From: an uncultured virus (IMG/VR IMGVR_UViG_3300037400_002380)
Taxonomy: Duplodnaviria; Heunggongvirae; Uroviricota; Caudoviricetes
Strand: one strand, 5' to 3'
DNA length: 64,000 bases
IMG/VR virus record: IMGVR_UViG_3300037400_002380
Part shown: piece after piece, positions 30,361 to 63,102 of the stretch
How the letters are laid out: every line of letters starts with the position of its first letter
How positions within the stretch are numbered: the first letter of the stretch is position 1
Notes under the pieces: model-generated
Told to the model about the DNA's origin: nothing
The model's input: the letters and a program-made list of their open reading frames with translations, nothing else
Database searches by the model: none
Position numbers and translations under genes: made by a program

Positions 30361-30783
30361 ATGGGTGATTTTTTGTCTAAGGAACTTTCAAAAGCTAACA
30401 GGTGGTGGCTGCCGAAGTACAGGTATCTGGAGCTAAGATATTTTGCGTTACAGTATCCGTATTGGAAACAGAAACTTGCTGAACTGAAGTACGATAATGG
30501 CATTACACATAAGAGGTCTGATGAACCATATTTAACCAGCTCAAAACTTAGTGACCGCACAGCAGAGATCGCCATACAGAGAAAGATTCTATCCGATTAC
30601 ATACGTATGGTGGAGCAAGCCGCTATTGAAGCAGAACCAGAACTTTACAGTTATATTCTCAAAGCCGTCACAGAGAATCTTACATTTGTGGTGTTGAAAC
30701 AGGTGTATAACATGCCATGCGAGAGAGACATGTTTTACGACCGCAGACGGAAGTTCTATTGGGCGTTGAGTAGGGTGCGCTAA
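30361..30783 (+). CDS. RinA/ArpU-like transcriptional regulator
   Basis: SDRTAEIAI and C-terminal HTH-like ERDMFYDRRRKFYWAL. Confidence 0.5.
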   Translation: MGDFLSKELSKANRWWLPKYRYLELRYFALQYPYWKQKLAELKYDNGITHKRSDEPYLTSSKLSDRTAEIAIQRKILSDYIRMVEQAAIEAEPELYSYILKAVTENLTFVVLKQVYNMPCERDMFYDRRRKFYWALSRVR

Positions 30784-30801
30784 AATTACAAAGCATATTA
30801 T

Positions 30802-30945
30802 GAGAGGTACTGCTATTGTAACCTAAACTGAAAGGCATGGTTACTTTAACAAAGAAACAGTTACAATTGGCCACGTTTGGGAAACCGAACTAAATAATAA
30901 AATGGCCAATTTAGCTTGTGGGTGCGGCTAATCCCACTACCTCTT
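30802..30945 (+). ncRNA. Candidate structured non-coding RNA
   Basis: Begins directly after a motif; closing stem agaggta/tacctct, internal stems, GAAA loops, T-tract; no ORF. Confidence 0.55.
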
Positions 30946-31090
30946 TTTTTTTTTTTTCGCATATTTTGCAACGCACATTATAGGATAGCGAGACTGTCGT
31001 AAAATCGACAATGAGCTTTAATTTTTTGCACAAAATTTACAACTCCTATTATAGGAATAAAACTGATTTTTTATACATAGGAGGATCATT

Positions 31091-31324
31091 ATGTTTACAA
31101 AGTTTTTTAAGAAGAATAAACAGTTTAGAGTCCGCGTTGCGGAAGAGTTCGCTCCTGATACAGGTGTGGCGCTTGGAAGGCTTGGATTAATAGCCGATCA
31201 GGTAGTTTACACCGGTGAACATGAGTACACTCTTACCGGGAAATGGACTCCGGACTTTTACGGAGACACAAGAACTTTAGAGGCATTAACAATGCTCCCC
31301 GTAAGGGAAGCGGTTGTATTCTAA
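31091..31324 (+). CDS. Hypothetical protein (single-gene cassette)
   Basis: Motif at 31029, RBS AGGAGG, hairpin terminator at ~31332-31382. Confidence 0.6.
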   Translation: MFTKFFKKNKQFRVRVAEEFAPDTGVALGRLGLIADQVVYTGEHEYTLTGKWTPDFYGDTRTLEALTMLPVREAVVF

Positions 31325-31446
31325 AAAGATACGGCTCTGTTGATATTTGAAAGACAATATCTGCAGGGTCGTTTTCTTTTTTCAAATCCAAAAATTTCCC
31401 AGGTCGGAATTTTCAGAAAAACAGATTAGGAGGTGGCTAAAAGTTT

Positions 31447-31698
31447 ATGGATTTTGGTTTTACGTTTTACTTATTTATCATTTTTGTTTGCCTTATTGGG
31501 GTTCTCATTGGCGTTAAACTGGATCAAAAAAGCGGACCAAACAACGTTTTGCCAGAATGTGTTGGCGCGATTCAGATATATGTTCAGGATGGCGAAGCAT
31601 ATTTGTTTCTTGACACAGATCTCACCCCATTGGAAATGGCAAGCCATTCAGAGATCATTCTTAAGGTAGTAACGCAGGATCCACAAACCCCTTTATGA
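31447..31698 (+). CDS. Hypothetical membrane-anchored protein
   Basis: RBS AGGAGG; N-terminal TM. Confidence 0.5.
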   Translation: MDFGFTFYLFIIFVCLIGVLIGVKLDQKSGPNNVLPECVGAIQIYVQDGEAYLFLDTDLTPLEMASHSEIILKVVTQDPQTPL

Positions 31699-31734
31699 GC
31701 AACTAAAAATTATATTTTTAAGAAAGGAGTAGCA

Positions 31735-32178
31735 ATGGGAAATAGTGACGGAATTAACGATGAGATTCGCGAAGAGTGCTGTAAACTGGTACTGAGCACC
31801 ATCAATCACGCCAACTCATTACCCAAAGACTCGGACGAGTTCAAGAAGGCTGTTGACGAGTTCCAGAAAGTGTATGGCGTATATCTGGATCAGGGCAAGG
31901 CTGATTGCCAGTATGACGAAGCGTATCAGAAGCGCGTGGAAGAATTTCGGAAGCGCAAATCTGACGACGAATTTCGCGAAAAGCAGTTAGCACAGCAGCA
32001 CAAGGAGTTTCGCCAGAAACTTGTTGCGGACTGCGTTACAAACGGCATCAAGATCGCGTTCTTGGCAGTGGTTGGGAAATGGTCGTCGGTGCTTGAGGGT
32101 GTTAGCGTGATATCTAGCGGCACTGCGAAGAATTTCATCCGCGAAACGTGGAAAAATTGCTTCGAGTTAAAGAAGTAA
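31735..32178 (+). CDS. Hypothetical protein (cassette)
   Basis: Motif at 31673, RBS AAAGGAG, hairpin at 32201. Confidence 0.6.
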   Translation: MGNSDGINDEIREECCKLVLSTINHANSLPKDSDEFKKAVDEFQKVYGVYLDQGKADCQYDEAYQKRVEEFRKRKSDDEFREKQLAQQHKEFRQKLVADCVTNGIKIAFLAVVGKWSSVLEGVSVISSGTAKNFIRETWKNCFELKK

Positions 32179-32255
32179 TGTTTAAGTAGCTCGACAACCG
32201 GGCCCTGTGAGTATCGAAATGATATTTGCAGGGCCTTTTTGTTTTTGGAGGACTA

Positions 32256-32615
32256 ATGCGATACCACTATAAGAAGCCGGACATCTCTATTCCGATGTAT
32301 GGAAAAACTTATATTTGTAACCATCCAGTGTATAACAAGTGTACACTGTATAAAATGGGAAACTCTGGGCTGGCAGTAATACAACAGCGATACAGTAAGA
32401 CGACTAAACGGACTTGGTGGAATCAGATAGATCCGTATTTGCAGAATGAATTATATTTGAACCCTAGGTTTTTAGACTATTTTAAGAAGTACGCAGGTCC
32501 TTGTGTTGACGAATGCTATCCGACTGTAACGATTAGACAAATTATGTGGGCTCTGAAGATCAAACCTTTAAAACGTGAACCGTGGGAGACCTCCTTCGAT
32601 CATTGTCCTATCTAA
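32256..32615 (+). CDS. Conserved hypothetical phage protein
   Basis: RBS GGAGG then ATG 32256; CNHPVY..CTLY motif. Confidence 0.6.
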   Translation: MRYHYKKPDISIPMYGKTYICNHPVYNKCTLYKMGNSGLAVIQQRYSKTTKRTWWNQIDPYLQNELYLNPRFLDYFKKYAGPCVDECYPTVTIRQIMWALKIKPLKREPWETSFDHCPI

Positions 32616-32684
32616 ATGCGCCAAAATTACAGGTCATATTATAGAAAGGAATTGAATTTTTTTATGAAAATAAAGGAGGTTTTT

Positions 32685-32900
32685 ATGAACATTTTGCTTA
32701 ATTCTGGATGGATTAAGTCTCTTGTGTCAAAGGCGATCACGTTCGCTGTTACCAAGAAGGCTGGTATCAAAGCCGATCTCGGTATCAATGAACTTGAGAT
32801 CACCGATGACGATGACGTTGACGGAGTAAATTTACATCTGGATATAAACGTAAAAATGACAAAAGAACAATTGGAAAAGCTGTTAAAAAATTTAATGTAA
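32685..32900 (+). CDS. Hypothetical protein (cassette)
   Basis: Motif at 32619, RBS AAGGAGG, terminator at ~32908-32950. Confidence 0.55.
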   Translation: MNILLNSGWIKSLVSKAITFAVTKKAGIKADLGINELEITDDDDVDGVNLHLDINVKMTKEQLEKLLKNLM

Positions 32901-33007
32901 TTTAAGAAAGGGCTTTGTTGGGTAAAACCGGCAAGGTCCTTTTTCTTTTTCGCAAGATTTGCATACACCATTATGAAACTGTTGGAAATTATGAAAGGAG
33001 GGATGTC

Positions 33008-33088
33008 ATGAGCCCGATCCACATAGTATTAGGATGTGGGTTGCTTATTGCAGCTTATTTAAACATGATCGACAACAACGATATGTAA
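33008..33088 (+). CDS. 26-aa hydrophobic peptide MSPIHIVLGCGLLIAAYLNMIDNNDM
   Basis: Strong RBS AAAGGAGG; translated by hand; below the ORF-track cutoff. Confidence 0.5.
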   Translation: MSPIHIVLGCGLLIAAYLNMIDNNDM

Positions 33089-33103
33089 AGAAAGGAGGAG
33101 ATT

Positions 33104-33196
33104 ATGCAGTTTGGAGGAATCACAATACTTGTGATTGGCCTCGCTGTTATTTGTATCTTAAAGGACTGGAACAAGTCCAATAAAGACAAAAAATAA
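33104..33196 (+). CDS. 30-aa hydrophobic peptide MQFGGITILVIGLAVICILKDWNKSNKDKK
   Basis: Strong RBS AAAGGAGG; single TM plus basic tail; terminator at ~33221-33260. Confidence 0.55.
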   Translation: MQFGGITILVIGLAVICILKDWNKSNKDKK

Positions 33197-33326
33197 TTAG
33201 TGAAAACCAATCACGAACTTTGGGAGGCTTTGCGAGATTCGCAGAGTCTCCTCTTTTTTCTCCTTCGCAGATTTTACAGGTCTTTTTATGACACTAGTAA
33301 CTGATATATTATAAGGAGGACGAAAT

Positions 33327-33587
33327 ATGTTTAATGTGCCTAAACTTAGAAAACCCGTGAAAAGGATGTCACACAAAATGGACTTACCGAAGACGTGTGT
33401 CGATCAGAAAGTCTGGGACGCTCTTCATCGTTTTGGTACCTTTGTAACAACAAAGGAATACCTGAAGGAAGATGAAGAGGCAACAGAGTTCTGGTACGAG
33501 ATCCGCGTTATCGCAAGCAACGATGAGTGGGACGCTCTTAACCGAGCTTTCGGGGCGATGGGCATTGACAAAATGCTCGCCAAGTAA
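33327..33587 (+). CDS. Hypothetical protein (cassette)
   Basis: Motif at 33266, RBS AAGGAGG, hairpin at 33611. Confidence 0.6.
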   Translation: MFNVPKLRKPVKRMSHKMDLPKTCVDQKVWDALHRFGTFVTTKEYLKEDEEATEFWYEIRVIASNDEWDALNRAFGAMGIDKMLAK

Positions 33588-33674
33588 AAAATTAGTAACA
33601 AGTAGACTGTGGCTCTCTGTAAGTATCCAAATGATATTTGCAGGGAGTCTTTTGTTTTTCCAGGAGGGATAAGA

Positions 33675-33980
33675 ATGGATAAGAAATTCACAATTACTAT
33701 TCCGTACGAGAATGATTTTTCAGATGAACAAAGAAGGGATCTTGCCTTGTTCGAGTTCCTGTGCCAGAAAAATTACGTTAACGATAAGCCTAAAGCGTAT
33801 GGCACACTTTCTCTGAACGAAGTTATGAGAGATTTTCATTACCTAAAGTGTTACCGATATTCGTATCGCTGGGGCTGGGATTTGCATAAGCACGGTTTCA
33901 TAGACGTTAATCTGATTCCAAATCCTGCGAGCGATTATATTTGGTATCTGAAATTCACAGCTTATGACATTGTTGGATAA
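33675..33980 (+). CDS. Hypothetical protein
   Basis: RBS AGGAGG before ATG (MDKKF...). Confidence 0.5.
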   Translation: MDKKFTITIPYENDFSDEQRRDLALFEFLCQKNYVNDKPKAYGTLSLNEVMRDFHYLKCYRYSYRWGWDLHKHGFIDVNLIPNPASDYIWYLKFTAYDIVG

Positions 33981-34194
33981 GGAGGGAACATGATCGACAG
34001 GATTCTTACTTTTATATTTGGCGAACTCACGGCCGCAGAAATTTGGGAAGCATGCGGTCAGCAGGTTAATGATACTGGCGAGATCGATCTGCTTATGGCT
34101 ATTCAGTATTTCACAGAACGTAAATGGAACGAAAGATTCTGGAGAATGATCGGTCGCTGATATTCTGATCCGCAAAATTTGCAAAGAGTATTGT

Positions 34195-34250
34195 GAGAGA
34201 CATTGACGGCTTAATTGAGGCTAGATCGGAAACGATTGTCGATGTCTCTC
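34195..34250 (+). ncRNA. Candidate small three-way-junction RNA
   Basis: Starts right after the motif at 34171; 13-bp closing stem gagagacattgac/gtcgatgtctctc; two inner hairpins, one with a GAAA loop. Confidence 0.5.
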
Positions 34251-34442
34251 TTAACTTTTCGTTCACTTATATTTTTTACAAAGGAGGTCGAAATTGAAAA
34301 AATGGGGTGCAATTCAATTGATTGCAGAAGCAGTAACAGGTATTGCCTCGGTCATCAGCATCGTGGCAGGTTTTAAAAACGACGAGGATCTTGACGAAAG
34401 AGTAAGAAGAATTCTCGACAATGACTCAGAGGAGGAAGAATA

Positions 34443-34634
34443 ATGAAAAATTCTACAAAGTATTTTCTTAAAAGCCTGGCAGCCTGGGCGGTTTTTGTCG
34501 CTGGAGCTATCGCGTATAATCAGTGTGGTTATGAGAACGGCTACGACGATGCTCTTGAGGGCGCTACAAAGGCTGCAAAAGAGCACGGTCACGATATCGA
34601 GTTTATTAAAACTAAAAAGAGAAAGGAGAAATAA
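34443..34634 (+). CDS. Hypothetical membrane-anchored protein
   Basis: ORF with N-terminal TM in a tightly packed operon. Confidence 0.5.
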   Translation: MKNSTKYFLKSLAAWAVFVAGAIAYNQCGYENGYDDALEGATKAAKEHGHDIEFIKTKKRKEK

Positions 34635-34636
34635 TT

Positions 34637-34930
34637 ATGAAGTTCCCTAAGATCAAAATCAGAAAAGGTGCTGGAATCAGACTTCTTGCATCAACGGCAT
34701 TATCGTTTGGAGCAGCTTTCTTCGGCTATTACCGCTATAAGCAGGGACTTGAGGAAGAGTGGGAGTACCTCACGGGTAAGGCCGATGAAAAAAGTAATAC
34801 GTTTTTTACAAACATGGACGATCCAGACAAGGATCGCGACAGGTATCTGATGTTAGGTAAAGAGAGGTCTTCCGAGTTATGGAAGATTGCTCAGGAGACA
34901 GTGAACAATGATCAGGAGAGCAACGACTAA
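34637..34930 (+). CDS. Hypothetical membrane-anchored protein
   Basis: RBS AAAGGAG; N-terminal TM. Confidence 0.5.
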   Translation: MKFPKIKIRKGAGIRLLASTALSFGAAFFGYYRYKQGLEEEWEYLTGKADEKSNTFFTNMDDPDKDRDRYLMLGKERSSELWKIAQETVNNDQESND

Positions 34931-35189
34931 GGGCAAAATAATAAACCGAATGTGTTTATATTTGTCGGAACTCGGTGATCCAGCACGCAGTTCATCACCA
35001 CATGGTGTCGTGGCTAGATCATATGCAAAGTCGACGGTGTTGGAATTAATAAAGGAGGTGGTGCATTCCGACACCGATCCGGCTTTGGTTGTTTCAGAAT
35101 TTATTAAAAAAGTTAACAAACGTGACGGGTTTATATTTAGTGTTGCATACGACATTGCCGTAGACCTGTACGATCGTGTGTTTTTATGA
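34908..35189 (+). CDS. Hypothetical protein
   Basis: Overlapping operon gene. Confidence 0.5.
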   Translation: MIRRATTKGKIINRMCLYLSELGDPARSSSPHGVVARSYAKSTVLELIKEVVHSDTDPALVVSEFIKKVNKRDGFIFSVAYDIAVDLYDRVFL

Positions 35190-35200
35190 AAGGAGTTTAA

Positions 35201-35416
35201 ATGAATACTGATAGCGTTACTATTTTTCTGGATAAGAGCCCTCTTTACATAGCTAACCAGCTTATTACGGCTATTATAGACGATGAGAGGAAACCTTCTC
35301 AGGAAGCAATCGACACGCTTGATGAAATCGCGGCATATATTCGTACTTGGGCAAGTTTTAGACCCTACGAAGAAGATAAGCGTCCGTTTCGTTACAGTTA
35401 TAGACCGGCACGATAA
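35201..35416 (+). CDS. Hypothetical protein
   Basis: RBS AAAGGAG. Confidence 0.5.
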   Translation: MNTDSVTIFLDKSPLYIANQLITAIIDDERKPSQEAIDTLDEIAAYIRTWASFRPYEEDKRPFRYSYRPAR

Positions 35417-35442
35417 TCCGCAAAGTTTGCAATGACTATTAT

Positions 35443-35518
35443 GGAAAGACTTCGGTCCAATGGGTGGACGCTACCAGCAATGGTAGAGAAGGTGTGTTCG
35501 AATCTACCAAGTCTTTCC
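35443..35518 (+). ncRNA. 76-nt tRNA-like cloverleaf RNA without a canonical anticodon loop
   Basis: 10-bp closing stem, D-like arm, ctacca-GCAA-tggtag arm, GTTCGAATC T-loop arm; motif upstream and U-tract downstream. Confidence 0.6.
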
Positions 35519-35744
35519 TTTTCTTTTTCACTTTTATATTTTCAAAGAAAGGAGTAACTATGTTAAAAGTATTCAAAACTATTTGTGGAGCAGTAGCAGT
35601 CTACGTTGAGTTCAAACTTGTCAAAGGGTATATCGCGCATCTCATGACAAAAGAGATGTATAAAAGAGGCGTAGACGATCTTCACATCAACGGTATGGAG
35701 CTTGTAGAACTGATTAAGAATGATATTTTCTGAGAGGCGTAACA

Positions 35745-36509
35745 ATGAGCAAATTGAGAGCGCTTAGAGCTGGTCTGATCAAACTCGGTCCGCAGATTGC
35801 TACTGGCATTGGGATCGGATTAGCTCTTCTTGCGGGCATCAAGGCTGTAGAGAAAACACCTGAAGCGATTAAACTCATCGAAAAGAAAAAGGAGGAAGAG
35901 CATAAAGATGAGTTGACACCGATGGAGACAGTGGAAGCAACATGGAAATGTTATATTCTGCCTATCATCATGTTCATTATCGCCTGCGTTCTGATTATCG
36001 GAGGGCAGAGAGTATCTACAAGGAGGGCATTGGCGGCAGCAACCGCCTGCTCGCTATCGGAAAGCAAGTTGCAAAAGATACTCGAAACGGAGAAGGCGTT
36101 CCTAGGTGATAAGAAAATGGACGAACTCCAGACCGAACGAGCACGATATGAAATAAAAAACAATCCGCCAGGTGAGGACATAGTTATCACCGGACGTGGA
36201 GACGCTTTGTTTTATGACGTACTCCATAAAAGATATTTCAAATCAGATCCGACGTACGTTGACAAGGCCATTTCGAGACTTAACTTCAGATTGTTAGATG
36301 AAATGTATGTTTCTGTAAACGACTATTGGAGTGAGATGGGCCTTCCAACAACAAAACTCGGAGAAATGCTCTGTTGGTCAGTTAATGACGGATCCATAGA
36401 TCCTGGTAAAACTGTAATTTTGGTTGACTCAGGACCATATGAAGGCTATCCGTGCAGAGTAATGGACTTTTATGTTTGTCCGAGGCATAACTACAACGAT
36501 CGTTATTAA
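35745..36509 (+). CDS. DUF6353-like conserved phage protein
   Basis: Two TM-like helices; LFYDVLHKRYFKS and VSVNDYWSEMGL motifs. Confidence 0.55.
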   Translation: MSKLRALRAGLIKLGPQIATGIGIGLALLAGIKAVEKTPEAIKLIEKKKEEEHKDELTPMETVEATWKCYILPIIMFIIACVLIIGGQRVSTRRALAAATACSLSESKLQKILETEKAFLGDKKMDELQTERARYEIKNNPPGEDIVITGRGDALFYDVLHKRYFKSDPTYVDKAISRLNFRLLDEMYVSVNDYWSEMGLPTTKLGEMLCWSVNDGSIDPGKTVILVDSGPYEGYPCRVMDFYVCPRHNYNDRY

Positions 36510-36574
36510 TTCGCAATAATAACGAACGCTATTATGAAACTGGTAACTTCGTCGAATACGAAAGGAGAATTGCT

Positions 36575-36814
36575 ATGGACGAAGAAAGAACTACGATGGA
36601 AACTGCTGAGGTTGTAAATAATGATATTCTGGATCAGGGAGCACCGGTTCCTGGCGATGAATCCGAGGAAGGACTTCCGTTTGGCGTATATGCTATTGCA
36701 TTCGGCGTCGGCGTCCTTATTGGAAAGGGAGTTAAATCAGTGTTTAACCTGATCACAGGTAAGAACAAAAAGTACGCCGAAGTGGACCACGGGAAGTTCA
36801 CTCGTGTTAAGTAA
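36575..36814 (+). CDS. Hypothetical membrane protein (cassette)
   Basis: Motif at 36512, RBS AAAGGAG, hairpin at ~36853. Confidence 0.55.
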   Translation: MDEERTTMETAEVVNNDILDQGAPVPGDESEEGLPFGVYAIAFGVGVLIGKGVKSVFNLITGKNKKYAEVDHGKFTRVK

Positions 36815-36953
36815 AACAAAATTATATTCTAAACGAAGTAACTGAAAACACGGAGAGGTTGTGCAACATATGCAACCTCTCCTTTTGTTTTCGAAAAGTG
36901 GATACGAGGGATAAGCAATTCCAACATAGTTCAAATCAAAAAGGAGGTTCGAC

Positions 36954-37283
36954 ATGCGTAAAGGTTTAGTTATATTCGGAACACTTATTGTAGCAGGTGT
37001 GGCCGGCATCATTGCGTATAAAAAACACAAAAAATCCGAGGAGGAAGATTTAGCAAAAACAATTGCAAAGACCATTAAGGATAAGGTTGATGAAGCAACC
37101 GTTGAAAAAGATATTAAGGACATGATCGATAAGAAGGCTAAACGGATTGTTGATCAGATTTCTTTGGAAAAGTCGATCATTCGTTTTGCAGACAGAATGA
37201 CTGACAAAATTATATTTAAAGCAAAACGCGCGATCGAGAAGAAAGTCGCCCATTACATGTTCTGGGCGGAATGGCTCGAATAG
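36954..37283 (+). CDS. Hypothetical membrane-anchored protein
   Basis: RBS AAGGAGG; N-terminal TM. Confidence 0.55.
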   Translation: MRKGLVIFGTLIVAGVAGIIAYKKHKKSEEEDLAKTIAKTIKDKVDEATVEKDIKDMIDKKAKRIVDQISLEKSIIRFADRMTDKIIFKAKRAIEKKVAHYMFWAEWLE

Positions 37284-37298
37284 GAAGGAGAATTATAT

Positions 37299-37889
37299 TT
37301 GGCTGACTACAGAAACGCAGGAAAGGCCGATAACGAACAAAAGACTTCTAGTAAAAAACTGGAAAAGGTCGTAAAGGGCTCCGTAAAACCAAAAAAGAAG
37401 TCTGGGTTCCGTAAGTTCATGGACGCATTTGTCCAGGAAGATATTGGCACTATTAAAGATTATGTATTTACAGAGGTTCTGATTCCGGCTATGAAAAAGA
37501 CATTTTCGGATATTGTCAACAATAGCCTGGACATGCTTCTTTGGGGTAAGTCTGGAGGTAGACGAACAAGAGGCAGCGCTGAACGAATCTCGTATAGAAG
37601 CTACTACAGAGATGGTGGCGTAAGCAGGGAGCCCGAAAAAAAGCGCAGGTACGACTATGATGAAATTGTTTTGGATAGCAGAGAAGAAGCAGAGGAAGTT
37701 CTTACAAGAATGAACGAGCTTCTTGAAGATTACAAAATGGTTAGCGTAGCAGACCTGTATGACCTGGTTGGTATCACTGGCAAAGTTACAGACAATAATT
37801 TCGGATGGACCGATCTGCGTAACGCATCGGTTACCCGTGACAGAGACGGATATTTGATTAACTTACCCAGAGCTATTGCTTTGGATTGA
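37299..37889 (+). CDS. Conserved hypothetical phage protein
   Basis: SREEAEEVL...VSVADLYDLVG...FGWTDL motif. Confidence 0.65.
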   Translation: MADYRNAGKADNEQKTSSKKLEKVVKGSVKPKKKSGFRKFMDAFVQEDIGTIKDYVFTEVLIPAMKKTFSDIVNNSLDMLLWGKSGGRRTRGSAERISYRSYYRDGGVSREPEKKRRYDYDEIVLDSREEAEEVLTRMNELLEDYKMVSVADLYDLVGITGKVTDNNFGWTDLRNASVTRDRDGYLINLPRAIALD

Positions 37890-37900
37890 AAGGAGTATTT

Positions 37901-38830
37901 ATGAGCAAGATGAGACTCGGAAAGGTTATAAAGAAACTCGTTAAGCATAGAAAGGCTGAGATCTGCATGGCCGCCGGAACAATTCTCGGAGTAGCGTCTT
38001 TTGTTTCGGCTTGCATCCAGGCCGGAAAAGGCTTGAATGATATTTCAAAGGATCATGCTGAGAGGATTGCAAAAGTTAGAGCAATGGACAAAGACGATCC
38101 GGAAAGAGGCAAAGAGACTCTGAAATGCTATGGTAAGACACTGTATCGGTCCGCACGTCTCATGGCTGGACCTTTGGCTTTGTTCGTAGCGTCTCAGGTA
38201 TCATTCTATGCGGCATACAATAATCTGAACATCACAAATGCTGGGCTTGCAGCAGGACTGGCTGGTCTTAAGAAAGAGTATGAAGCTTATCAGGAACGCA
38301 CTGAAAAGATCGTAGGTAAAGAAGTAGCTGACAAGATTCGTTATGGCGCAGAGACCAAAGAGATTGAGAAGACTGTAATCGATGAGAATGGCGAGGAAAA
38401 GGTTGTTACCGAAATCGCAGATGTTGTAGAGAATCCTGACGGGAGCGATTTTGTGAAGTATTTCGCTAAAGGCAATCCTAACTGGGATAATTCTCCAGAC
38501 ATGAGTAAGTTCTTTCTCGATTGCCAGCAGAACCTTGCTAATGACATGCTCAGAACAAATGGCGAGTTAACTCTAAATGAGGTGTATGACATGCTTGGGT
38601 TCGAGAGAACGGAAGCTGGCATGGTCATGGGCTGGCTGTACGATAAGTATCATCCGTTTGGCGAGAACAAAGTAGAGTTTAGGAAGAAACGCGTCCACAT
38701 TCCGAACGAAAACGGCAAAGGATATTCCATAGGTTACGCCATCGATTTCAACATTGACGGTAACATCTATGAGGAGAAGATCCGCAGGAGAGGTCTTAAA
38801 ACCTTTCGGAAGCGGAAATTGGATGGCTGA
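37901..38830 (+). CDS. DUF6353-like conserved phage protein (paralogue of 35745)
   Basis: LTLNEVYDMLG..GW..IDFNIDG motif. Confidence 0.55.
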   Translation: MSKMRLGKVIKKLVKHRKAEICMAAGTILGVASFVSACIQAGKGLNDISKDHAERIAKVRAMDKDDPERGKETLKCYGKTLYRSARLMAGPLALFVASQVSFYAAYNNLNITNAGLAAGLAGLKKEYEAYQERTEKIVGKEVADKIRYGAETKEIEKTVIDENGEEKVVTEIADVVENPDGSDFVKYFAKGNPNWDNSPDMSKFFLDCQQNLANDMLRTNGELTLNEVYDMLGFERTEAGMVMGWLYDKYHPFGENKVEFRKKRVHIPNENGKGYSIGYAIDFNIDGNIYEEKIRRRGLKTFRKRKLDG

Positions 38831-38872
38831 TATTTTTGATTACCCTTGGTTGTTCTATTAAGGAGAATAATT

Positions 38873-39487
38873 ATGAAGAAAGCTTTTTATGCAGTGGCGT
38901 TTCTTGCAGGGGCTGTTGTCGGAGTTGTTTCCGGAGCGTTTGCTATGAATAAGTACATTCACAAGCACTATGATATTTCAGAAAAGACTGACGATGCCGA
39001 TGACGCAGAAGAACCTTTCGAGTCTGTCGAGCAGGATGAAGACGATGGATTAAGTCAAGAAGAGAAGATTATTAAACGTGCTAATAATGATATTTTGAAA
39101 CACGTTAAAGATCCTGAAGAAAGAAAAAAGACAGAGGCGCTTCTCAACGAATATATTACTCTTTCGTCAATTTATGGCGGAGAAGAAGTTGTTGAGATGC
39201 ACGATACACCATATAGAATTATGCCCGATCAGTTTTCAGAGTTCTCTGACTATAGTGCAGTAGAACTCACTTTATATTCTGATGGGATTGTTGCTGACGA
39301 CCGCGATGAGATAGTACCAAATGCGGAAGAATTACTCGGTCCAAATTTCAGATCGATGTTTAAGGAAGGAGAAGATGAGCTTTATATTCGTAACGATGAA
39401 CGATGCTGCGATTATGCAATCCTGAAAGATCTCCAGACATATGAAACTTTGGAAGATGAGCGTCCGCATTACATAGAGGAGGGATAA
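38873..39487 (+). CDS. Conserved hypothetical protein, N-terminal TM, acidic
   Basis: PYRI.PD.F, LTLYSDGIVAD, LYIRND motifs. Confidence 0.6.
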   Translation: MKKAFYAVAFLAGAVVGVVSGAFAMNKYIHKHYDISEKTDDADDAEEPFESVEQDEDDGLSQEEKIIKRANNDILKHVKDPEERKKTEALLNEYITLSSIYGGEEVVEMHDTPYRIMPDQFSEFSDYSAVELTLYSDGIVADDRDEIVPNAEELLGPNFRSMFKEGEDELYIRNDERCCDYAILKDLQTYETLEDERPHYIEEG

Positions 39488-40033: not shown

Positions 40034-40037
40034 CTAA

Positions 40038-43000: not shown

Positions 43001-44087
43001 CAGTATTGTTGCGGAAGAGCTGTTCGGACCTGAATATACAGCTCGATTTAATGATATTCTGCAGGCTCGTATTGCAATCAAGCATAAGGACTTTGACAAG
43101 GCAAGAACCATGCTTGGTGGAAAGCTTGCTAAGTATCTTACTGATGAAAGCGCTGCAAAAGATCTGGCTCAGGCTCTGAAGATTGCAATCAATTCCGTAT
43201 ATGGTCTTACTGCTGCTTTGTTCGAGAATCCCTTTCGTGATATTCGTAACAAAGATAATATCGTCGCTAAGAGAGGCGCTTTGTTCATGGTTAACCTGAA
43301 GCATGAGGTACAAAACAGAGGGTTTACAGTAGCTCACATCAAAACGGATTCCATCAAGATTCCAAACGCTACTCCTGAGATCATTAAGTTTGTTACTGAT
43401 TATGGCAAACTGTATGGCTACAACTTTGAACATGAAGCTACATACGACCGTATGTGCTTGGTTAACGACGCTGTTTATATTTGTAAACATGACGGAGAGT
43501 GGGATGCTACAGGCACGCAGTTCGCTGTTCCGTATGTCTTTAAAAAGTTATTCAGCCACGAGCCTATTAAGTTCAAAGACATGTGCGAAACAAAATCTGT
43601 AGCTAAGGGTGAGTTATATTTAGACATGAACGAATCTCTTCCCGACGTTTCGATGATCGAGAAAGAACTGGACAAAGCCGTTCAGAAGTACAAGAAAGGG
43701 CTTCTCTCTGATATTTCGTACGATGAAATTAAAGCTAGGTTAGAACCAGAGATTGAGGAAGGTCATTCTTATCAATTCGTAGGACGAGTTGGATCGTTCT
43801 GCCCGATCAAGCCCGGATTGGGCGGAGGCGTTCTGTACAGGAAGCAGGACGGCAAATACTATGCTGCTGCAGGAACTAAGGGCTATCGCTGGCTAGAGTC
43901 TGAAACCGTCAGGGATTTAGAGAACGCACGAGATATGATAGACGAGTCCTATTATATTTCTCTGGTCGATGACGCAGTGGATACTATTTCTCAGTACGGA
44001 GATTTTGAGATGTTTGTTTCTGATGATCCTATTGCGAAGTATATGAATGTGCCAGAATCTACTGAAGAGGAGATTCCCTTCGCATAA
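40038..44087 (+). CDS. Fused SF3 helicase - primase-like - family B DNA polymerase
   Basis: Walker A GEAGTGKST; VIDFD and SKSGKAIHLHY primase-like motifs; exonuclease FYDIE; PolB motifs DIASMHPS, KIAINSVYG, KTDS. Confidence 0.85.
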   Translation: MDFFMISTRPGKKGVIEIYPRFIIPTRKKSSDLMIRGGDFYAVWMEDKGLWSTDEGDVLQTIDHELDLYLENKKDEFADYKLKVLHMWDAQTGMIDTWHKYCQKQLRDSYHALDEKIIFSNVEPKKEDYASKRLSYPLEKGSIEAYDRLMSVLYSEDERRKIEWAIGSIVAGDSKTIQKFIVLYGEAGTGKSTVLNIIDSLFGDYCISFESKVLGQSNASFALEQFKSNPLVAIDHEGKLSGLEDNTRLNSIVSHDKMIVNEKFKSPYENRFKCFLFIGTNEPVRITNAKSGLLRRLIDVSPTGNKIPSREYKKLVKQIDFELGAIAQHCLEVYTEDPDHYENYIPTTMLSATNDFYNFVLDSYITFKKEDGVSLAVAYEMYKNYCDMARVPYPYTRRVFKEELKNYFKEYCERCQLEDGTRVRSYYKNFRVEKFEEPNEIPDEPEKKEDDDWLVFREQHSLFDSLYSDCPAQYAKKDETPSVAWDDVKTTLKDLDTSKLHYILTQAKEPNLIVIDFDIKDPVTGEKSYDLNYAAASKWPKTYAELSKSGKAIHLHYIYNGDVSQLSRIYDEHVEIKVFTGKSSLRRALTLCNDIAIATISSGLPIKKGDKVVNENVIKSEQGLRKLIVRNLNKEIHSSTASSVDFIYHILEDAYESGLVYDISDMKPSIIAFAASSSNQSEKCLNLVTRMHFKSEEDAENEEASNDILVFYDIEVFPNLFVVNWKKRGKENKVVRMINPTGEQVNILTQFKLIGFNNRRYDNHILYARVMGYNNQQLYELSQKIISGDRNAFFGNAYNISFTDVYDFCSKKQSLKKWEIELGIHHQELGLPWDKPVPEELWPKVAEYCDNDVIATEAVFEARQADFIAREILADVAGSVPNDTTNGLTTKIIFGDNRHPQSQFNYRDMGDESERFDDFVYESQFYYDFDSYYTAFDFEGKPIFPGYKYESGKSTYRGEEVGEGGYVYSEPGMYFNIALLDIASMHPSSIVAEELFGPEYTARFNDILQARIAIKHKDFDKARTMLGGKLAKYLTDESAAKDLAQALKIAINSVYGLTAALFENPFRDIRNKDNIVAKRGALFMVNLKHEVQNRGFTVAHIKTDSIKIPNATPEIIKFVTDYGKLYGYNFEHEATYDRMCLVNDAVYICKHDGEWDATGTQFAVPYVFKKLFSHEPIKFKDMCETKSVAKGELYLDMNESLPDVSMIEKELDKAVQKYKKGLLSDISYDEIKARLEPEIEEGHSYQFVGRVGSFCPIKPGLGGGVLYRKQDGKYYAAAGTKGYRWLESETVRDLENARDMIDESYYISLVDDAVDTISQYGDFEMFVSDDPIAKYMNVPESTEEEIPFA

Positions 44088-44143
44088 TTAACAACGCCCT
44101 TTATGGAAGTATTGTTTTTATATTTTAGAAAGGAGTAACTGTT

Positions 44144-44383: not shown

Positions 44384-44507
44384 CGAAAATCGAGAACAAT
44401 ATTTTGTAACTGATGACCGAGCCCCTGTGGTGTGTGATTAACACTGCGGGGGCTCTTGTCTTTTCGCCAGATTAACAATCTCCTTTATAGAAAGGAGATT
44501 TTTTGAC

Positions 44508-45295: not shown

Positions 45296-45359
45296 TATTT
45301 ATACGCACTATTTGCACCTCCTTTTATGCAATAATAACTATTTCGGAAAGGAGATACAA

Positions 45360-45707: not shown

Positions 45708-45822
45708 AAGGCGAGCCTCTGTAGGTATCAAAAAGATATTTGCAGAGGCTTTTGCTTTTTCGCAGGATTTACGCCTCCTTTTATGCAAACAAAAACTGTT
45801 TTTTATTTATAGGAGGTAAACT

Positions 45823-46092: not shown

Positions 46093-46194
46093 TTTGTAAG
46101 TGTATGGCTCACTGTGATATTTACAGTGGGTCTTACGTTTTCGCTATGTTTACATCTCCTATTATAGAAAGATTCAATATAGGAGGTGCTAAAA

Positions 46195-46473: not shown

Positions 46474-46582
46474 AGACGAGAGTCTGTGCTGTATGATATT
46501 TAGCAGCATGGACTCTTTGTTTTTCGCACTATTTACATACCTCTTTATAGAAACGTTAATTAATTTGTAAGGAGGTATATTT

Positions 46583-48795: not shown

Positions 48796-49017
48796 TGGTA
48801 GAGTATCCCATTCAAGTTAGATGGCCTTATGAACCACCGCTTGCAAGAGCCATGAGATCGCAAGACTGGATAATATGGTTTTCTTATCAAGTTTTGTTTT
48901 TAGGGACAAGCGCAGATTTTATACGAACTTATTTTGCATTCGAACGTTTCTCCGCCAAATAAACAACTCCTTTTATGAACAAGTAAATTATATTTCACAA
49001 GCAAAAGGAGGTAAAAA

Positions 49018-49314: not shown

Positions 49315-49427
49315 AAGGCAGTTACATTCTGGCGAGGAGGTAATTCTAAAAAGAGTTGCCTCCTTTTGTTTTTCGCAATATTTACTGTCTATATTATGAC
49401 TATAAACTTTTTAAGAAAGGAGACTAA

Positions 49428-49790: not shown

Positions 49791-49863
49791 ATAGTCAACT
49801 ATAGACTCTCTGTAAGTATCGGAATGATATTTGCAGGGAGTCTTTTGTTTTTAAGGAGGTTTT

Positions 49864-51296: not shown

Positions 51297-51362
51297 GTAC
51301 GCATTTCTTACAATCTCCTTTATGGACGAATGGTGTCCGTATTTAGAAAGGAGTAACTTATT

Positions 51363-51776: not shown

Positions 51777-51891
51777 AAGCCAACAGGAGGGCCTGTCGCG
51801 ATATTTACGATGGGTCCTTTTGTTTTTCTCGCAGAATCTGCAATCTCCTTTATGGACGAATAGTGTCCGTAAATAAAAAGGAGGAAACAAA

Positions 51892-52176: not shown

Positions 52177-52388
52177 GGCATTCGGAGGTAGCTCTTTATT
52201 GAGTTGCCTCCTTTTATTTTTTTTTTTCACGCAGAATTTACAAACAGTATTATGGAAACGTTTCATTAAGATGAAAGGAGGATTTGAAATGAAACGTATA
52301 AGCAAGGGAAGACCTAACTGCGCTATTCTAGATAAGCGTTACAAGGTCTTCCCGTTTTTGTTTTATATTTTCTAGCGTTAGGAGGGTT

Positions 52389-53670: not shown

Positions 53671-53734
53671 TTGGCTCCCTGTAGGTATCAGAAATGATAT
53701 TTGCAGGGAGTTTTTTATTTGAAAGGAGATAGCG

Positions 53735-54013: not shown

Positions 54014-54023
54014 TGGAGGACAA

Positions 54024-54305: not shown

Positions 54306-54314
54306 GGAGAACAA

Positions 54315-55417: not shown

Positions 55418-55429
55418 AAGGAGAATCTG

Positions 55430-58009: not shown

Positions 58010-58074
58010 CTACGCATATTTTGCAATCTTCTTTATAGGTAGGAAACTAAAAACTTATTATAAGGAGGTACTGT

Positions 58075-58434: not shown

Positions 58435-58570
58435 GTGAGGATAAGAAAACCGACAAGACTCTCTGTGAGTATCGAAATGATATTTACAGGGAGTCTTTTG
58501 TTTTCGCAATATTTGCGTTCTCTATTATGGAACTATTAACTTTTATGACATTCCATAAAGGAGGACAAAA

Positions 58571-58936: not shown

Positions 58937-59012
58937 TCACTTGTAAACCGGGTGCGAGGCTCAGCAAGGGTCACACACCCTTTTTATTTTTTTCATATAA
59001 GGAGAATAAATT

Positions 59013-60377
59013 ATGAACTCTAAGCTTGTAACGACAACCATCTTATCACCCAATCATTCGGGAAAGAGGTGCCACAAAGTAACCCGCATAACGCCTCACT
59101 GCATGGTTGGACAGCTAAGTGCTACTGAATGTGGGCATCTCTTTGCGAATGCTCACTACGAGGCGTCAAGCAACTATGGTATCGGGACTGGTGGCGTAAT
59201 TGGTCTGTATGTTGACGAGGACAACCGGTCATGGTGCTCAAGCTCTGCAGACAACGACAACCGTGCTATCACCATTGAATGTGCATCCGACACTAAGCAT
59301 CCTTACGCCATGAACCAGCAGGTATGGAATTCGCTTGTGGAACTCTGCACTGATATTTGTGTGAGGTATGGCAAGACTAAGACGATCTGGTTCAACGACA
59401 AGGCTACGACCCTTGCTTATGTGCCAAAAGACAATGAAATGATATTTACAGCCCATCGGTGGTTTGCTGCTAAGGCGTGTCCTGGTGATTGGCTGTACAA
59501 AAGGATGGGCAAATTGTCTGAAGAAGTCAATAAAAAGCTCTCTCAGACTACGTTTTGGCCAGAAAAAGAGATCGAACGGCCTAAAACAGGGGTGATCTAT
59601 GATACAGAAGAGGACCGCGAGAGGGATATCTGGCACTTTTTCAAGGTCAACAGTGACTTCAACGACTTCGGAATCGCTGGACTTATGGGAAATTTATATT
59701 CTGAAAGCGCTCTTAGACCCAACAATCTGCAGAATTCTTTCGAGAAGAAGCTGAAAATGACCGATAAGTCCTATACAACGGGTGTAAACGACGAAACTTA
59801 TAGCCGTGAGCAGTTTATCAACGATGGCGCTGGCTATGGATTGGCTCAGTGGACCTTCAGAACACGGAAAGCTGCCCTTTATGACTTCATTTTGGGTGGT
59901 GCGAACGGTCATTTGGCCTCGATCGACGATTTATATTTGCAGTGTGCGTTCCTTCTGAAGGAATTGGTGCAGTACAAAGAGGTTTACAAGGTCCTTTCCA
60001 AGGCTGTCAGCGTCAAACAGGCGTCTGATATTGTCCTGACACAGTTCGAAAAGCCTGCTGATCAGAGTAATTCGGTCAAAAACAAGCGTGCGGCCTTCGG
60101 AAAAGTCTATTATGACAAGTATTCCGACGCTAAAAAGGACGTCGTGAAGGAAAATCTGGGCTTTTATATTCAGTATGGCGCCTTCAGCACGAAGAAAAAC
60201 GCTGAAAAGAGACTTGCTGAGATCGAAAAACACGGTTTTGAGGGAAAAGTTGAGAAATTTGACGGCTATTATCGTGTAATTCATGGATATTTCAAGGATC
60301 GAAGTGAACTTGATGGCATTGTTTCGGCTGCAAGAAGTAAGAAGTTCGATGTTATTGTCAAAGAAAGGAAGGTTTGA
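59013..60377 (+). CDS. Endolysin: amidase_2 + phage-lysozyme-like + SPOR domains
   Basis: ITPHC, SSNYGIG, AITIECA, HRWFAAKACPG; AGLMGNL..ES, GYGLAQWT, FEKPA; IQYGAFSTKKNA. Confidence 0.85.
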   Translation: MNSKLVTTTILSPNHSGKRCHKVTRITPHCMVGQLSATECGHLFANAHYEASSNYGIGTGGVIGLYVDEDNRSWCSSSADNDNRAITIECASDTKHPYAMNQQVWNSLVELCTDICVRYGKTKTIWFNDKATTLAYVPKDNEMIFTAHRWFAAKACPGDWLYKRMGKLSEEVNKKLSQTTFWPEKEIERPKTGVIYDTEEDRERDIWHFFKVNSDFNDFGIAGLMGNLYSESALRPNNLQNSFEKKLKMTDKSYTTGVNDETYSREQFINDGAGYGLAQWTFRTRKAALYDFILGGANGHLASIDDLYLQCAFLLKELVQYKEVYKVLSKAVSVKQASDIVLTQFEKPADQSNSVKNKRAAFGKVYYDKYSDAKKDVVKENLGFYIQYGAFSTKKNAEKRLAEIEKHGFEGKVEKFDGYYRVIHGYFKDRSELDGIVSAARSKKFDVIVKERKV

Positions 60378-62038
60378 TAGCTATGTTGTGGTATAGAGTA
60401 CAAATTGGAGCCTATGCTCTGAAGAAATCTGCTGAAAAAGTGTCCGTCGACCTGATCGAGAAGGGGTTTAAGACCGCTATCGTCCATGAAGGACTGCTTT
60501 ACAAGGTCAGAGTCGGCAGTTTCCAGGATAAAGCGAAGGCCGAGAAGGTTCTGGCACGTGTCCATGAGCATAAAAACTACAGAAAAGCGAAGATTCTTGA
60601 GTGGGACGATGGCGTAAAGATCGGTGAAAAGCACGGAACCGGCGTGATTATTCGTGAAAACGAGGCTAATCAGGTCCTCACCATGATCGAAAACAGATAT
60701 TTGGACCGCGATGACGCTCATAAGAGGGTTATGGCGGACTTCAATGCGCTTGCGGACAAGGTCGGAAAGCCTCATATGAAGGACACCAGTGGATGGTGTA
60801 CAGAAACCCTGGTGTCTGCGTTCAATCTTTGTGGTCTTTTGGACCTTGTTGGGTATGCTACAGGCGCTCCTGCTCTGAAAAAGAATGCTAAAGAGCGTGG
60901 TACGTGGATCAGTGGGACTCCGGATCACTACGAACCCGGTGATATTTGCGTTTATCAGAGTGATGCCGGCGACCCTAACCATGTAGAAATCAGTATTGAT
61001 CAGGAATGGAACTATACTGGCAACCGTAATGGTGGATGCCATAAGCGTAAAAAGACTGATCGACACAGCAAACTCAACGGCGTGATCAGACCTAAATACA
61101 AGACTATTGATATTCCGGTTGATGACGACGATACGGCTTTGGTCGATTACAATCCCAGGATCGATCTTGTAGCTATCTGGCTCAGTGAGACCCATGAGAG
61201 CAAGTATGGTGATGCTCAGGTCTTTATTGAGTATGGTCCTGACGACAAGACCATTGCCCATGCTGTGCTTGTGGATACTGGTCAGAATGGATGCGACACC
61301 ATTGCAAAGCTTAAGAAACTTGGGGTTAAGACTCTGGATGCCGTTGTGATCTCTCATGCCCATGGCGATCACTATGGATATTTGAAAGAGATTCTTAATC
61401 AGTTCAAGGTTCTGCATCTGTATTTGCCTGGGATTGCGGGTCTTAAGAAGTATCAGAAGAGCTATGCTACAGCCATTCAGAATCAGGAAACGAGGGCTAA
61501 GAAGCTCGGTATTCCTGTCACTTATATGACTACTGGATCGTCGTTTACCATCGGACACATCGAATGTGAGTGCGTTTATCAGGTTCTTGCCAGTGATCTG
61601 AGCGAGCACGACAACCATCACTTCGTCAATAACCAGTCCACTGTATTGATATTTACTTTGGAAGGTGTTGGTAAGGTTCTGTTAACTGGCGATCTGAGTA
61701 ATCCTGGAAACAGGGTTGTTATGAAGAAAGTTCCTCGTGAATATTTGCAGGCTGACATTGCCAAGTGCGGATGGCATGGTGATGGTAATGCTATGACCAT
61801 TGACTGGGCCAAGTTCATCGGTGCTTGGGCTTGGTACTGGAATTATCACCATGCTATGCGTAAGGGCGGACGTCAGAATACCTTAAAGAAATTGAAGAAT
61901 GCCGGGGTTCTTGAGAAACATATCTACAGGAACTATGAAGATGGCGACATCACCTTCTCCTACAAGAACGGATCCTGGACTATTACCAAGTCCAAAGACA
62001 GTAAGAACCATGAGGTAGTTAAGTCCAGGTTCACTTGA
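60374..62038 (+). CDS. SPOR + CHAP-like + metallo-beta-lactamase-fold (ComEC/Pce-like) hydrolase
   Basis: YRVQIGAY / YKVRVGSF; WC....S...PGDI...HV; LVDTG, ISHAHGDHYG, NNQS, LLTGD, WHG. Confidence 0.75.
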   Translation: MIAMLWYRVQIGAYALKKSAEKVSVDLIEKGFKTAIVHEGLLYKVRVGSFQDKAKAEKVLARVHEHKNYRKAKILEWDDGVKIGEKHGTGVIIRENEANQVLTMIENRYLDRDDAHKRVMADFNALADKVGKPHMKDTSGWCTETLVSAFNLCGLLDLVGYATGAPALKKNAKERGTWISGTPDHYEPGDICVYQSDAGDPNHVEISIDQEWNYTGNRNGGCHKRKKTDRHSKLNGVIRPKYKTIDIPVDDDDTALVDYNPRIDLVAIWLSETHESKYGDAQVFIEYGPDDKTIAHAVLVDTGQNGCDTIAKLKKLGVKTLDAVVISHAHGDHYGYLKEILNQFKVLHLYLPGIAGLKKYQKSYATAIQNQETRAKKLGIPVTYMTTGSSFTIGHIECECVYQVLASDLSEHDNHHFVNNQSTVLIFTLEGVGKVLLTGDLSNPGNRVVMKKVPREYLQADIAKCGWHGDGNAMTIDWAKFIGAWAWYWNYHHAMRKGGRQNTLKKLKNAGVLEKHIYRNYEDGDITFSYKNGSWTITKSKDSKNHEVVKSRFT

Positions 62039-62055
62039 TATTCTGAGAGGTTAAT

Positions 62056-62223
62056 ATGGGGGACAAGAAAAGAGGCAGACCTAAGAAACGTTATCTAGTA
62101 AGAAAGACCAAAGAGATCAGACTGAGGCTCTCGCCGTTGCAATATGATCAAATTAGAGTCCGCGCAGAGAGAGATGGCGTGTCTATGAGCGAGTATATTC
62201 GCAGTCTTTTACCTATTTTTTAG
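62056..62223 (+). CDS. 55-aa ribbon-helix-helix (MobC/CopG-like) DNA-binding protein
   Basis: MGDKKRGRPKK...IRLRLS..QYDQI...A..DGVSMSEYIRSLL; translated by hand. Confidence 0.6.
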   Translation: MGDKKRGRPKKRYLVRKTKEIRLRLSPLQYDQIRVRAERDGVSMSEYIRSLLPIF

Positions 62224-62650
62224 GCCTACAAAAAATAAAAATCTCTGCCCACTTTTGAGTTTTTGAAAGTGGGCAAAACCCACTTTTTTTTGGCCATTGA
62301 CATAAAGTCGATTTTTGAGGCCTACAAAAAATAGAAAAAATGGGTATTTTTTAGGCCTACAAAAAATAGTTTTTTGGCCAAAAGCCCACTTTTGCCCACT
62401 TTCGAAATGGCCAAAAATGGGCAGAAAATGGGCAAAATTTGATTTTTTGTAGGCCTCATAAATAGCGAAAAAATGCCAAAAAACGCCCAAAAACGGCCTT
62501 TTTTATTTTTTAGGCCTACAAAAAATAGAGAGCTCTGGCCAAAAACCCACTTTTATTTTAAATTAATTGCGAAAAAAAAAATAATAATTATATAGTAATT
62601 AACGAAAAAAAGTGGGCTTTTGGCCAGAGAATTTTTGTAGGCCTAAAAAT
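62222..62650. repeat. Iteron-rich non-coding region, putative replication origin
   Basis: AGGCCTACAAAAAATA at 62222, 62318, 62353, 62512 and inverted at ~62442, ~62631; CCCACTTT repeats; AT-rich core 62555-62607. Confidence 0.7.
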
Positions 62651-62720
62651 TCATTGATATTTTAGGCAGATTTATCTCCCAGTTTCATGGTACAATAAAA
62701 GAAACGAAAGGAGGTAAAAC

Positions 62721-62930
62721 ATGAACTTTTTCAACCCACAGAGAATCACAGCCATGCTTACAGGAGAATACATCTGCCCAGAATGTGGAAGCCGATTGAT
62801 ATTTGAAGACGAGTGGGAAACCGTTTTGGTATGCCCATGTTGTGGTAACAGTATTGAACTGGATAGATACGGTTTTACAGATGATGAATATGAATCGCTC
62901 TATCCGACAGAAGATGAACTTGACAATTGA
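62721..62930 (+). CDS. Zinc-ribbon protein
   Basis: CPECG...CPCCG; RBS AAAGGAGG; terminator at ~62952-62985. Confidence 0.6.
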   Translation: MNFFNPQRITAMLTGEYICPECGSRLIFEDEWETVLVCPCCGNSIELDRYGFTDDEYESLYPTEDELDN

Positions 62931-63102
62931 TATTTTGGTTTTGTGCTTGAATGGGCCTCGCAGCTTTGCGGGGCTCTTTTCTTTTGCTATTTTTCTCTTC
63001 GCAATAATTACAGTTCCTTTTATGAAAGGAAGAGAGTATAAAGTGCCAAATTTGACACTTCTCTTCCTTTTCGTTTTTCTGGATATTTGAAAGGAGTATT
63101 AA

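Follow-up and report, generated by a model that had tools for sequence, protein, structure and literature searches.

The 64,000-nucleotide stretch of DNA considered here (the window) comes from the uncultured virus IMGVR_UViG_3300037400_002380 of IMG/VR and carries 25 copies of a three-block motif. These sites are probably promoters for a predicted RNA polymerase (RNAP) of the single-chain two-barrel type that the phage itself encodes, with the first transcribed base (+1) at the purine that follows the TTAT of the motif, as judged from sequence comparison. The genome, of 67,097 bases, is that of a temperate siphophage with a tyrosine integrase, and its group includes Lactococcus phage 1706, Faecalibacterium phage Oengus, and phages of Arthrobacter, Gordonia, Streptomyces, Rhodococcus, and Microbacterium (the 1706/Oengus/actinophage AU-BI-CC-DJ-EL group, with hosts from two phyla). 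By its predicted features, the polymerase is a full-length representative of a family that had been predicted before; what this analysis adds is the probable promoter with its geometry and the position of +1.

The strict pattern CGC-N7-RCR-N7-TTAT-R has 21 matches in the window, from 30778 to 63000, all on the plus strand and none on the minus strand; 48 alternative spacer combinations give just 0–2 matches per strand. A weight matrix made from the strict sites adds 1379, 31029, 34171, and 49374 (18.9–28.1 bits), each departing from the consensus by one letter (TCA, CAC, TTGT, and ACT, respectively). The next-best matrix site on either strand reaches 8.6 bits, the best among three shuffles 9.9 bits, and an order-2 Markov control gave 0.27 matches on average and two at most in 100 runs. 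A weak 26th match at 28882, inside a terminator, is left out of the count. The sequence-only reading had proposed 25 plus-strand copies, at 1379 and 24 right-arm positions, and all were recovered (21 strict and 4 near), with the examples it quoted lying at 46142 and 52230; the invariant spacing it described also holds, but its consensus letters do not, since four sites break them. The blocks lie about 10 bp apart (CGC at −24 to −22, RCA at −14 to −12, TTAT at −4 to −1), and the base after the A/T-rich hexamer that ends in TTAT is a purine at 25 of 25 sites (G 18, A 7). All sites but one are in the non-structural arm (24/25), and the structural arm has a single site. Many are found directly 3′ of a terminator U tract. 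An open reading frame (ORF) of at least 24 aa, led by a Shine–Dalgarno (SD) sequence, lies within 170 nt downstream of 23 of the 25 sites, the other two being without one; this separate SD starts at +3 to +106.

An RNAP was looked for in the rest of the genome, and a predicted two-barrel polymerase gene was found, in line with the phage-encoded enzyme suspected from the motif. Only its first 76 bases fall within the window, at the very end; the whole gene spans genome positions 63925–66651 (907–908 aa, with RYPH and SGADFDGD). Eight invariant residues of two-barrel enzymes are given in the part of the analysis by Ruprich-Robert and Thuriaux (2010, PMC2919709) that was covered. In the present protein R472, P474, D519, D521, G522, and D523, which make up the DxDGD loop and an upstream R-x-P, are invariant in 150 of 150 homologues; in the second barrel R282 and K292 are invariant and D259 is kept in at least 90% of the 150, these residues being paired with QDE-1 by motif order and not by residue-level superposition. 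Sequence and profile searches of the PDB returned helix-turn-helix (HTH) matches only and no polymerase, so recognition of the two-barrel fold required a structure search. The model of the polymerase (79 homologues as input; pLDDT 88, pTM 0.82) has QDE-1 as its best structural match (Foldseek E 7e-9; Z 15.5, root-mean-square deviation 4.2, 360 aligned, residues 233–745), with Z values of 13.1 for P74-26 gp62 and 11.4 for P23-45 gp64. QDE-1, RDR2, and the Thermus phage gp62/gp64 outrank cellular polymerases in this search. Two HTH units are located at residues 45–125 and one at 865–907, and the C-terminal one matches sigma region 4 profiles weakly. The protein is 48% identical to that of Oengus and matches 250 phage records; the family comprises 891 clusters at 50% identity (E up to 1e-30), with 337 stretches found in genomes of bacteria, and its members mostly bear the annotation of HTH protein.

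Behind the polymerase gene lies a gene for a 77-aa acidic protein (PHROG 4303, genome 66728–66961) with 2763 homologues and no name, for which an atlas search gave no usable match. Free-standing frames of about 195–219 aa, found in other contigs (Table 1), match only positions 531–626 of the polymerase profile. Four left-arm proteins (1473–2078, 2024–2839, 2827–3243, and 5196–5864) share a DUF7211 leader (HHG..G..WG), and the N-terminus of the polymerase has a weaker look-alike, LxHYG (Pfam E 0.12); the leader is possibly a virion-loading signal.

The motif travels with the polymerase gene. With the matrix of this phage, 14 of 16 relatives give 5–22 matches on the gene strand and 0–2 on the other, the mean for column-shuffled matrices being at most 0.8; 15 of these relatives were picked by their polymerase gene and MT835485 by its primase-polymerase. 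P092 (1 match) and BitterVaud1 (2 matches) were missed with this matrix, and variants were found in them by looser searches, post hoc. Actinophage sites read TCGCA-N6-ACA-N5-TATAAT-GA. The reverse test consisted of two motif-only scans of IMG/VR, which returned at least 158 and at least 175 stretches, and the 80 loci listed for each were considered. Among the loci listed there are 64 distinct contigs of at least 40 kb; in the 63 that were searched the full polymerase gene is present in 54, a piece of it in 2, and none in 7. For contigs at least 90% complete the figure is 39 of 41, G003 among these 41 being already known to carry the gene. Lysogens were represented by five genomes (21.5 Mb), picked from 80 loci for long contigs. 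Of the 34 matches in them, 27 have the polymerase gene within 35 kb and on the same strand; four cluster on a second contig and resemble the prophage sites of another genome, and three are scattered (control: 6). Most of the matches (27–31 of 34) thus sit at the prophage and not on the chromosome at large, and the motif does not mark a host regulon.

Lactococcal members keep ACA-N5-hexamer and shift the distal block, which is mostly CAC/YGC in 1706 and TTT in P092. An assignment of motif blocks to HTH units was tried and rejected: P092 is without the C-x-C and the ESSVR helix, 1706 has both, and Bing has CGC without the helix.

Transcription from a sigma70 promoter starts about 7 nt beyond the −10 hexamer. 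The sequence-only reading had placed +1 directly after TTAT, and the comparison of SDs, stems, and tRNA-like elements across genomes points to the same position. The five closing stems it had listed (1403, 30802, 34195, 35443, and 63024) are all predicted to fold from the purine, with z-scores of −3.25, −4.77, −2.75, −1.09, and −2.48, respectively; the stem at 1403 relies on G–U pairs, and the folding energy at 35443 is not unusual. The folded stretches were cut to begin at +1, and thus offset scans are the real control for the stem position. Among 209 sites in 17 genomes, 11 have a helix of at least 8 bp that opens at +1/+2; the number rises to 19 for +1 to +7, and no helix opens at +8 to +12. 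An SD at +2 to +4 precedes an ORF of at least 49 aa at 13 of the sites. A second, independent set comprised 604 non-redundant sites, taken from 157 loci selected by the motif and scored only on the 24 bases that precede +1. No SD-led ORF was called for 255 of them; at the 349 sites with such an ORF, the SD lies at +1 to +5 in 74 (68 at +2/+3, and 10 at +4 to +9). Helices backed by a T-rich run open at +1/+2 in 41 cases, at the three preceding positions in 16, and at +4 to +25 in 7, and 21 of 29 tRNA-like elements begin at +3 to +5. A start at +7 would cut off the SDs and acceptor stems located at +1 to +5, which argues for +1 right after the hexamer. Of the assembled RNA contigs (6 of 19 runs), one ends at 51326 (+3), one at 35440 (−3), and others between +13 and +20; in one run, long contigs read across motif sites. 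Contigs cannot show starts, and none of these observations was used as evidence.

The difference from sigma70 promoters claimed by the sequence-only reading is borne out in this phage by three tests, in which its sites number 26 (the 25 plus the weak match at 28882). A TTGACA-like −35 at 16–18 nt with at least 5 of 6 letters is present at no site, and 4 of 6 letters occur at 4/26 (background 13%). The extended −10 TG is found at 0/26 sites here, 3/108 other Firmicutes-type sites, and 2/73 actinophage-type sites; TAnnnT is found at 10/26 and at 36/110 other Firmicutes-type sites. A sigma70 scan of 28–48 kb gave 37 sites compared with 43.8 in shuffles, and no canonical sigmaA site was seen 5′ of the structural operon. 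The sites also do not fit the sigma54 consensus, GG-N10-GC at −24/−12. At −14/−13 they have AC in 16/26 and GC in 8/26, and the flank above CGC is mostly T-rich.

Several observations weigh against the assignment of these sites to the phage enzyme. TAnnnT occurs in 60/73 actinophage-type sites, 40 of which have TATAAT, a perfect −10 (405/604 in the pooled set), and a 4/6 match to the −35 occurs in 24/108 other Firmicutes-type sites, compared with 11% in the background. The count of purines at +1 (598 of the 604 sites) is somewhat inflated, since every locus was found by a pattern that required G there in at least one of its sites. In the contigs G010 and G052, which are near-complete and contain the motif, no match to the polymerase was obtained; no change in the HTH units follows the motif cleanly across relatives; and no late promoter was identified. 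The co-occurrence of motif and polymerase is also expected from shared ancestry, and any core gene could be the reader; it names a candidate but does not prove the pairing.

The first two of these observations keep one rival explanation ahead of the others, although we consider it improbable. In it, the hexamer would serve as the −10 for the sigmaA polymerase of the host, while a phage activator bound to the CGC/ACA blocks would replace the −35, as in the logic of T4 middle promoters. The motif and the candidate HTH protein are both phage-borne, and thus an activator would also fit the co-occurrence and the confinement to prophages. However, the low frequency of TAnnnT in this and other Firmicutes-type phages, the missing TG, and the SDs, stems, and tRNA-like elements beginning at +1 to +5 do not agree with it, and the HTH protein retains a full catalytic center. 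A second rival, held to be rather less probable, accepts that the phage polymerase reads the sites but assumes that its own HTH units are insufficient and that a separate specificity factor, of phage or host, is needed. The need for additional factors was left open for YonO by the authors in the part of PMC5467207 covered, all annotated relatives that were viewed have the 77-aa gene behind that of the polymerase, and the lack of an HTH residue that tracks the motif would fit as well. Against it stand the three HTH units built into the chain, the C-terminal one being weakly sigma region 4-like, and a host factor is disfavored by the persistence of the motif across two host phyla.

The sequence-only reading had offered as an alternative that the sites serve the exchange of gene cassettes, here by the integrase. 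One related contig lacks exactly 51830–52229, from motif to motif with 8 shared letters, joints are found at 32619 and 35415, and for two relatives 8/40 and 8/42 alignment ends fall at motifs that make up 4% of the length, a count that is confounded, as both the motif and intergenic DNA set limits to alignments. Gain and loss of cassettes at the borders of motifs thus seem to occur, but recombination as the function of the sites is unsupported and very improbable: there is no palindrome (2–8 of 24) and no shared core (the in-register identical run is mostly 4–7 nt, mean identity 15.7/24), phages of clusters CC and EL, described in the source parts covered as without integrase, carry the motif, and transcription agrees with the strict polarity and the geometry downstream. 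The turnover of cassettes is better explained as a side effect of short homology among the promoter copies. That the sites are operators or stoperators of a phage repressor, as their asymmetry, single strand, intergenic position, and many copies in a temperate phage could suggest, is hardly credible, since the motif occurs in lytic members without a repressor (in the source parts covered), no sigma70 promoters above chance are there to be repressed, and RNA 5′ structures stand at a fixed position relative to it.

If the sites are promoters of the phage RNAP, then the fused HTH units would bind the upstream blocks on one helix face and replace the sigma factor, the A/T-rich hexamer would melt, and RNA would start at the next purine. 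Each promoter–gene–terminator unit could be a self-contained early cassette, and in the prophage no transcription would be expected from these promoters as long as the enzyme is missing. The site at 63000 would drive the polymerase's own operon through a hairpin that possibly attenuates it. More weakly, it may be proposed that the enzyme is carried in the virion, so that the circuit starts without host polymerase; in GenBank the 1706 orf75 and Poco6 homologues are labelled "structural protein," which is a record annotation. In its boldest form, which we hold to be slightly less probable than its opposite, the model has a sigma-free two-barrel RNAP that comes with the virion and relies on the HTH units fused to it to find and open promoters in double-stranded DNA, a T7-like system of one protein and one promoter on the basis of the cellular polymerase fold. 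If it is true, early transcription would be freed from the host, which would help to explain how one lineage with the same promoter spans Firmicutes and Actinobacteria.

The enzyme family has been predicted before, in 2010 and 2021. Ruprich-Robert and Thuriaux (2010, PMC2919709) placed the 1706 protein in one of five YonO-like families, separate from YonO, and Koert et al. (10.1101/842583) also predicted the enzyme, the word "promoter" being absent from their main text. The family of 1706 orf75, Oengus AUV56548, and PHROG 4291 (AU-AM-AW-BI-CC-DJ-EL) has, in the covered parts of both sources, the same HTH at both ends and DxDGD. A similar arrangement is that of Thermus phage P23-45, for which gp96/gp64 were tied to conserved upstream motifs travelling with the enzyme among relatives (Chaban, 2024, PMC10770324, in the part covered). 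Both phages have a single-chain two-barrel enzyme and a motif (structural Z 11–13); however, of the two enzymes of P23-45 one is joined to the tape measure, whereas the present phage has a single enzyme, fused to HTH units, and a site of 24 bp in three blocks; sequence identity is 14%. YonO of Bacillus phage SPbeta is likewise a single-chain two-barrel polymerase of about 100 kDa from a temperate Firmicutes phage. It is DNA-dependent and transcribes one late operon, its promoter sequence being left undetermined in the part of Forrest (2017, PMC5467207) covered, while 24/25 sites here lie in the non-structural arm. The likeness to sigma70/sigmaA promoters is limited to the A/T-rich hexamer, TATAAT in many actinophage sites; there is no −35 at 16–18 nt and no extended −10, −11A is not kept, and the inferred +1 adjoins the hexamer. 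The start-associated sequences (SAS) and extended SAS (ESAS) of actinophages are also repeated, oriented, intergenic, and 5′ of small genes (PMC7302621, in the passages covered, where no motif is reported for cluster EL). An SAS is found at the ribosome-binding site, whereas the present motif is not at that position, has a distinct SD further downstream, and stands in front of non-coding RNAs as well. By analogy, the system would work like the phage-polymerase promoter sets of P23-45 and YonO, and the new part would be the three-block site with an adjacent start for an HTH-bearing polymerase. The motif is not shown in the portions covered of PMC5883640, PMC13313380, 10.1101/2022.11.23.517428, PMC7302621, PMC5513430, and PMC5759034. 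Neither a description of it nor a bench test of this polymerase family was found in the literature searched, the former within a scope that left supplements and some primary genome papers outside. The defined promoter and start base make a widespread predicted enzyme directly testable in cultured phages of Arthrobacter, Gordonia, Streptomyces, and Lactococcus. If the enzyme alone reads the site, this would show a two-barrel polymerase initiating without a sigma factor, and the enzyme could be used for orthogonal expression in Gram-positive hosts. Throughout the group, the motif is in addition a marker of transcription units and of genes for small RNAs.

Table 1. Motif sites, predicted RNAs, and related features (window positions unless a contig or phage is named).
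Feature	Position	Strand	Basis or remark
Motif site, near match, only left-arm site	1379..1403	+	Weight matrix; predicted +1 1403
Predicted hairpin from +1, then U-rich tract	1403..1446	+	Folding
Tyrosine integrase	28962..30134	+	Temperate-phage context; bears on recombination
Motif site	30778..30802	+	Strict pattern; predicted +1 30802
Predicted structured RNA (144 nt) with closing stem from +1 and poly-U behind it	30802..30945	+	Folding; no Rfam match
Motif site	30958..30982	+	Strict pattern
Motif site, near match (CAC)	31029..31053	+	Weight matrix
Motif site	31673..31697	+	Strict pattern
Motif site; SD-like AAAGGA at +3	32619..32643	+	Strict pattern
Motif site	32951..32975	+	Strict pattern
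Motif site	33266..33290	+	Strict pattern
Motif site, near match (TTGT)	34171..34195	+	Weight matrix
Predicted three-way RNA, closing stem from +1	34195..34250	+	Folding
Motif site	35419..35443	+	Strict pattern
Predicted tRNA-shaped RNA (76 nt) with closing stem of 10 bp from +1 and U tract behind it	35443..35518	+	Folding; uncalled by ARAGORN
Motif site heading operon with primase-polymerase (40038–44087) as last gene	36512..36536	+	Strict pattern
Motif site	44081..44105	+	Strict pattern
Motif site; SD AAAGGAG +3, ATG +20, 75-aa ORF	44465..44489	+	Strict pattern
Motif site	45304..45328	+	Strict pattern
Motif site	45761..45785	+	Strict pattern
Motif site	46142..46166	+	Strict pattern
Motif site	46525..46549	+	Strict pattern
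Motif site	48953..48977	+	Strict pattern
Motif site, near match (ACT)	49374..49398	+	Weight matrix
Motif site	51300..51324	+	Strict pattern
Motif site; starts 400-nt cassette 51830–52229, missing from one related contig	51830..51854	+	Strict pattern
Motif site	52230..52254	+	Strict pattern
Motif site	58013..58037	+	Strict pattern
Motif site 5′ of small gene and endolysin gene	58505..58529	+	Strict pattern
Motif site heading nuclease-exonuclease-RNA polymerase operon	63000..63024	+	Strict pattern
Predicted hairpin from +1/+2, U-rich tail, possible attenuator	63024..63071	+	Folding, offset scan
Predicted two-barrel RNA polymerase gene, first 76 bases	63925..64000	+	Runs on to genome 66651; PHROG 4291
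Free-standing polymerase piece	G006:C1:13266-13553		Profile match
Free-standing polymerase piece	G027:C1:10882-11175		Profile match
Free-standing polymerase piece	G031:C1:34202-34489		Profile match
Free-standing polymerase piece	G035:C1:8595-8882		Profile match
Lactococcal motif variants	1706 (W12) 24026-42925		Natural variants
Lactococcal motif variants	P092 (W06) 22960-44453		Natural variants

Rfam and ARAGORN gave no matches in the window. The RNA at 35443–35518 has a GCAA tetraloop in the place of the anticodon loop and is 85–87% conserved in G001 and G005; in relatives, tRNA-like genes called by ARAGORN are found at +2 to +9 of a motif site. A family of terminator-like hairpins of 17–20 bp is present at 32200–32236, 33611–33649, 45713–45751, about 49800–49845, 53670–53715, and 58455–58500. 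Their 3′ arm opens with GATATTT(G/A)CAG, several lie directly 5′ of a motif site, and they are possibly terminators tuned to the phage enzyme.

Among other genes of the window, 40038–44087 encodes a 1349-aa primase-helicase-DNA polymerase fusion, the replicase of the group, 49864–50625 a glycoside hydrolase of family GH114, and 60374–62038, behind the endolysin gene, a protein with SPOR and a metallo-beta-lactamase fold. The closest match of the polymerase in bacterial genomes (88%, L407) is on a 6.5-kb contig of a Butyrivibrio metagenome-assembled genome, and the others are mostly in Lachnospiraceae and Oscillospiraceae, which gives a hint of the host only. On the gene strand, ATATT outnumbers AATAT by 252 to 63 in this phage, 176 to 6 in Pepy6, 133 to 4 in Roney, and 104 to 2 in Bing, for which the Markov expectation is 8. 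The bias is absent in G002 and P092 and weak in Niktson; a primase recognition site as its cause is a guess.

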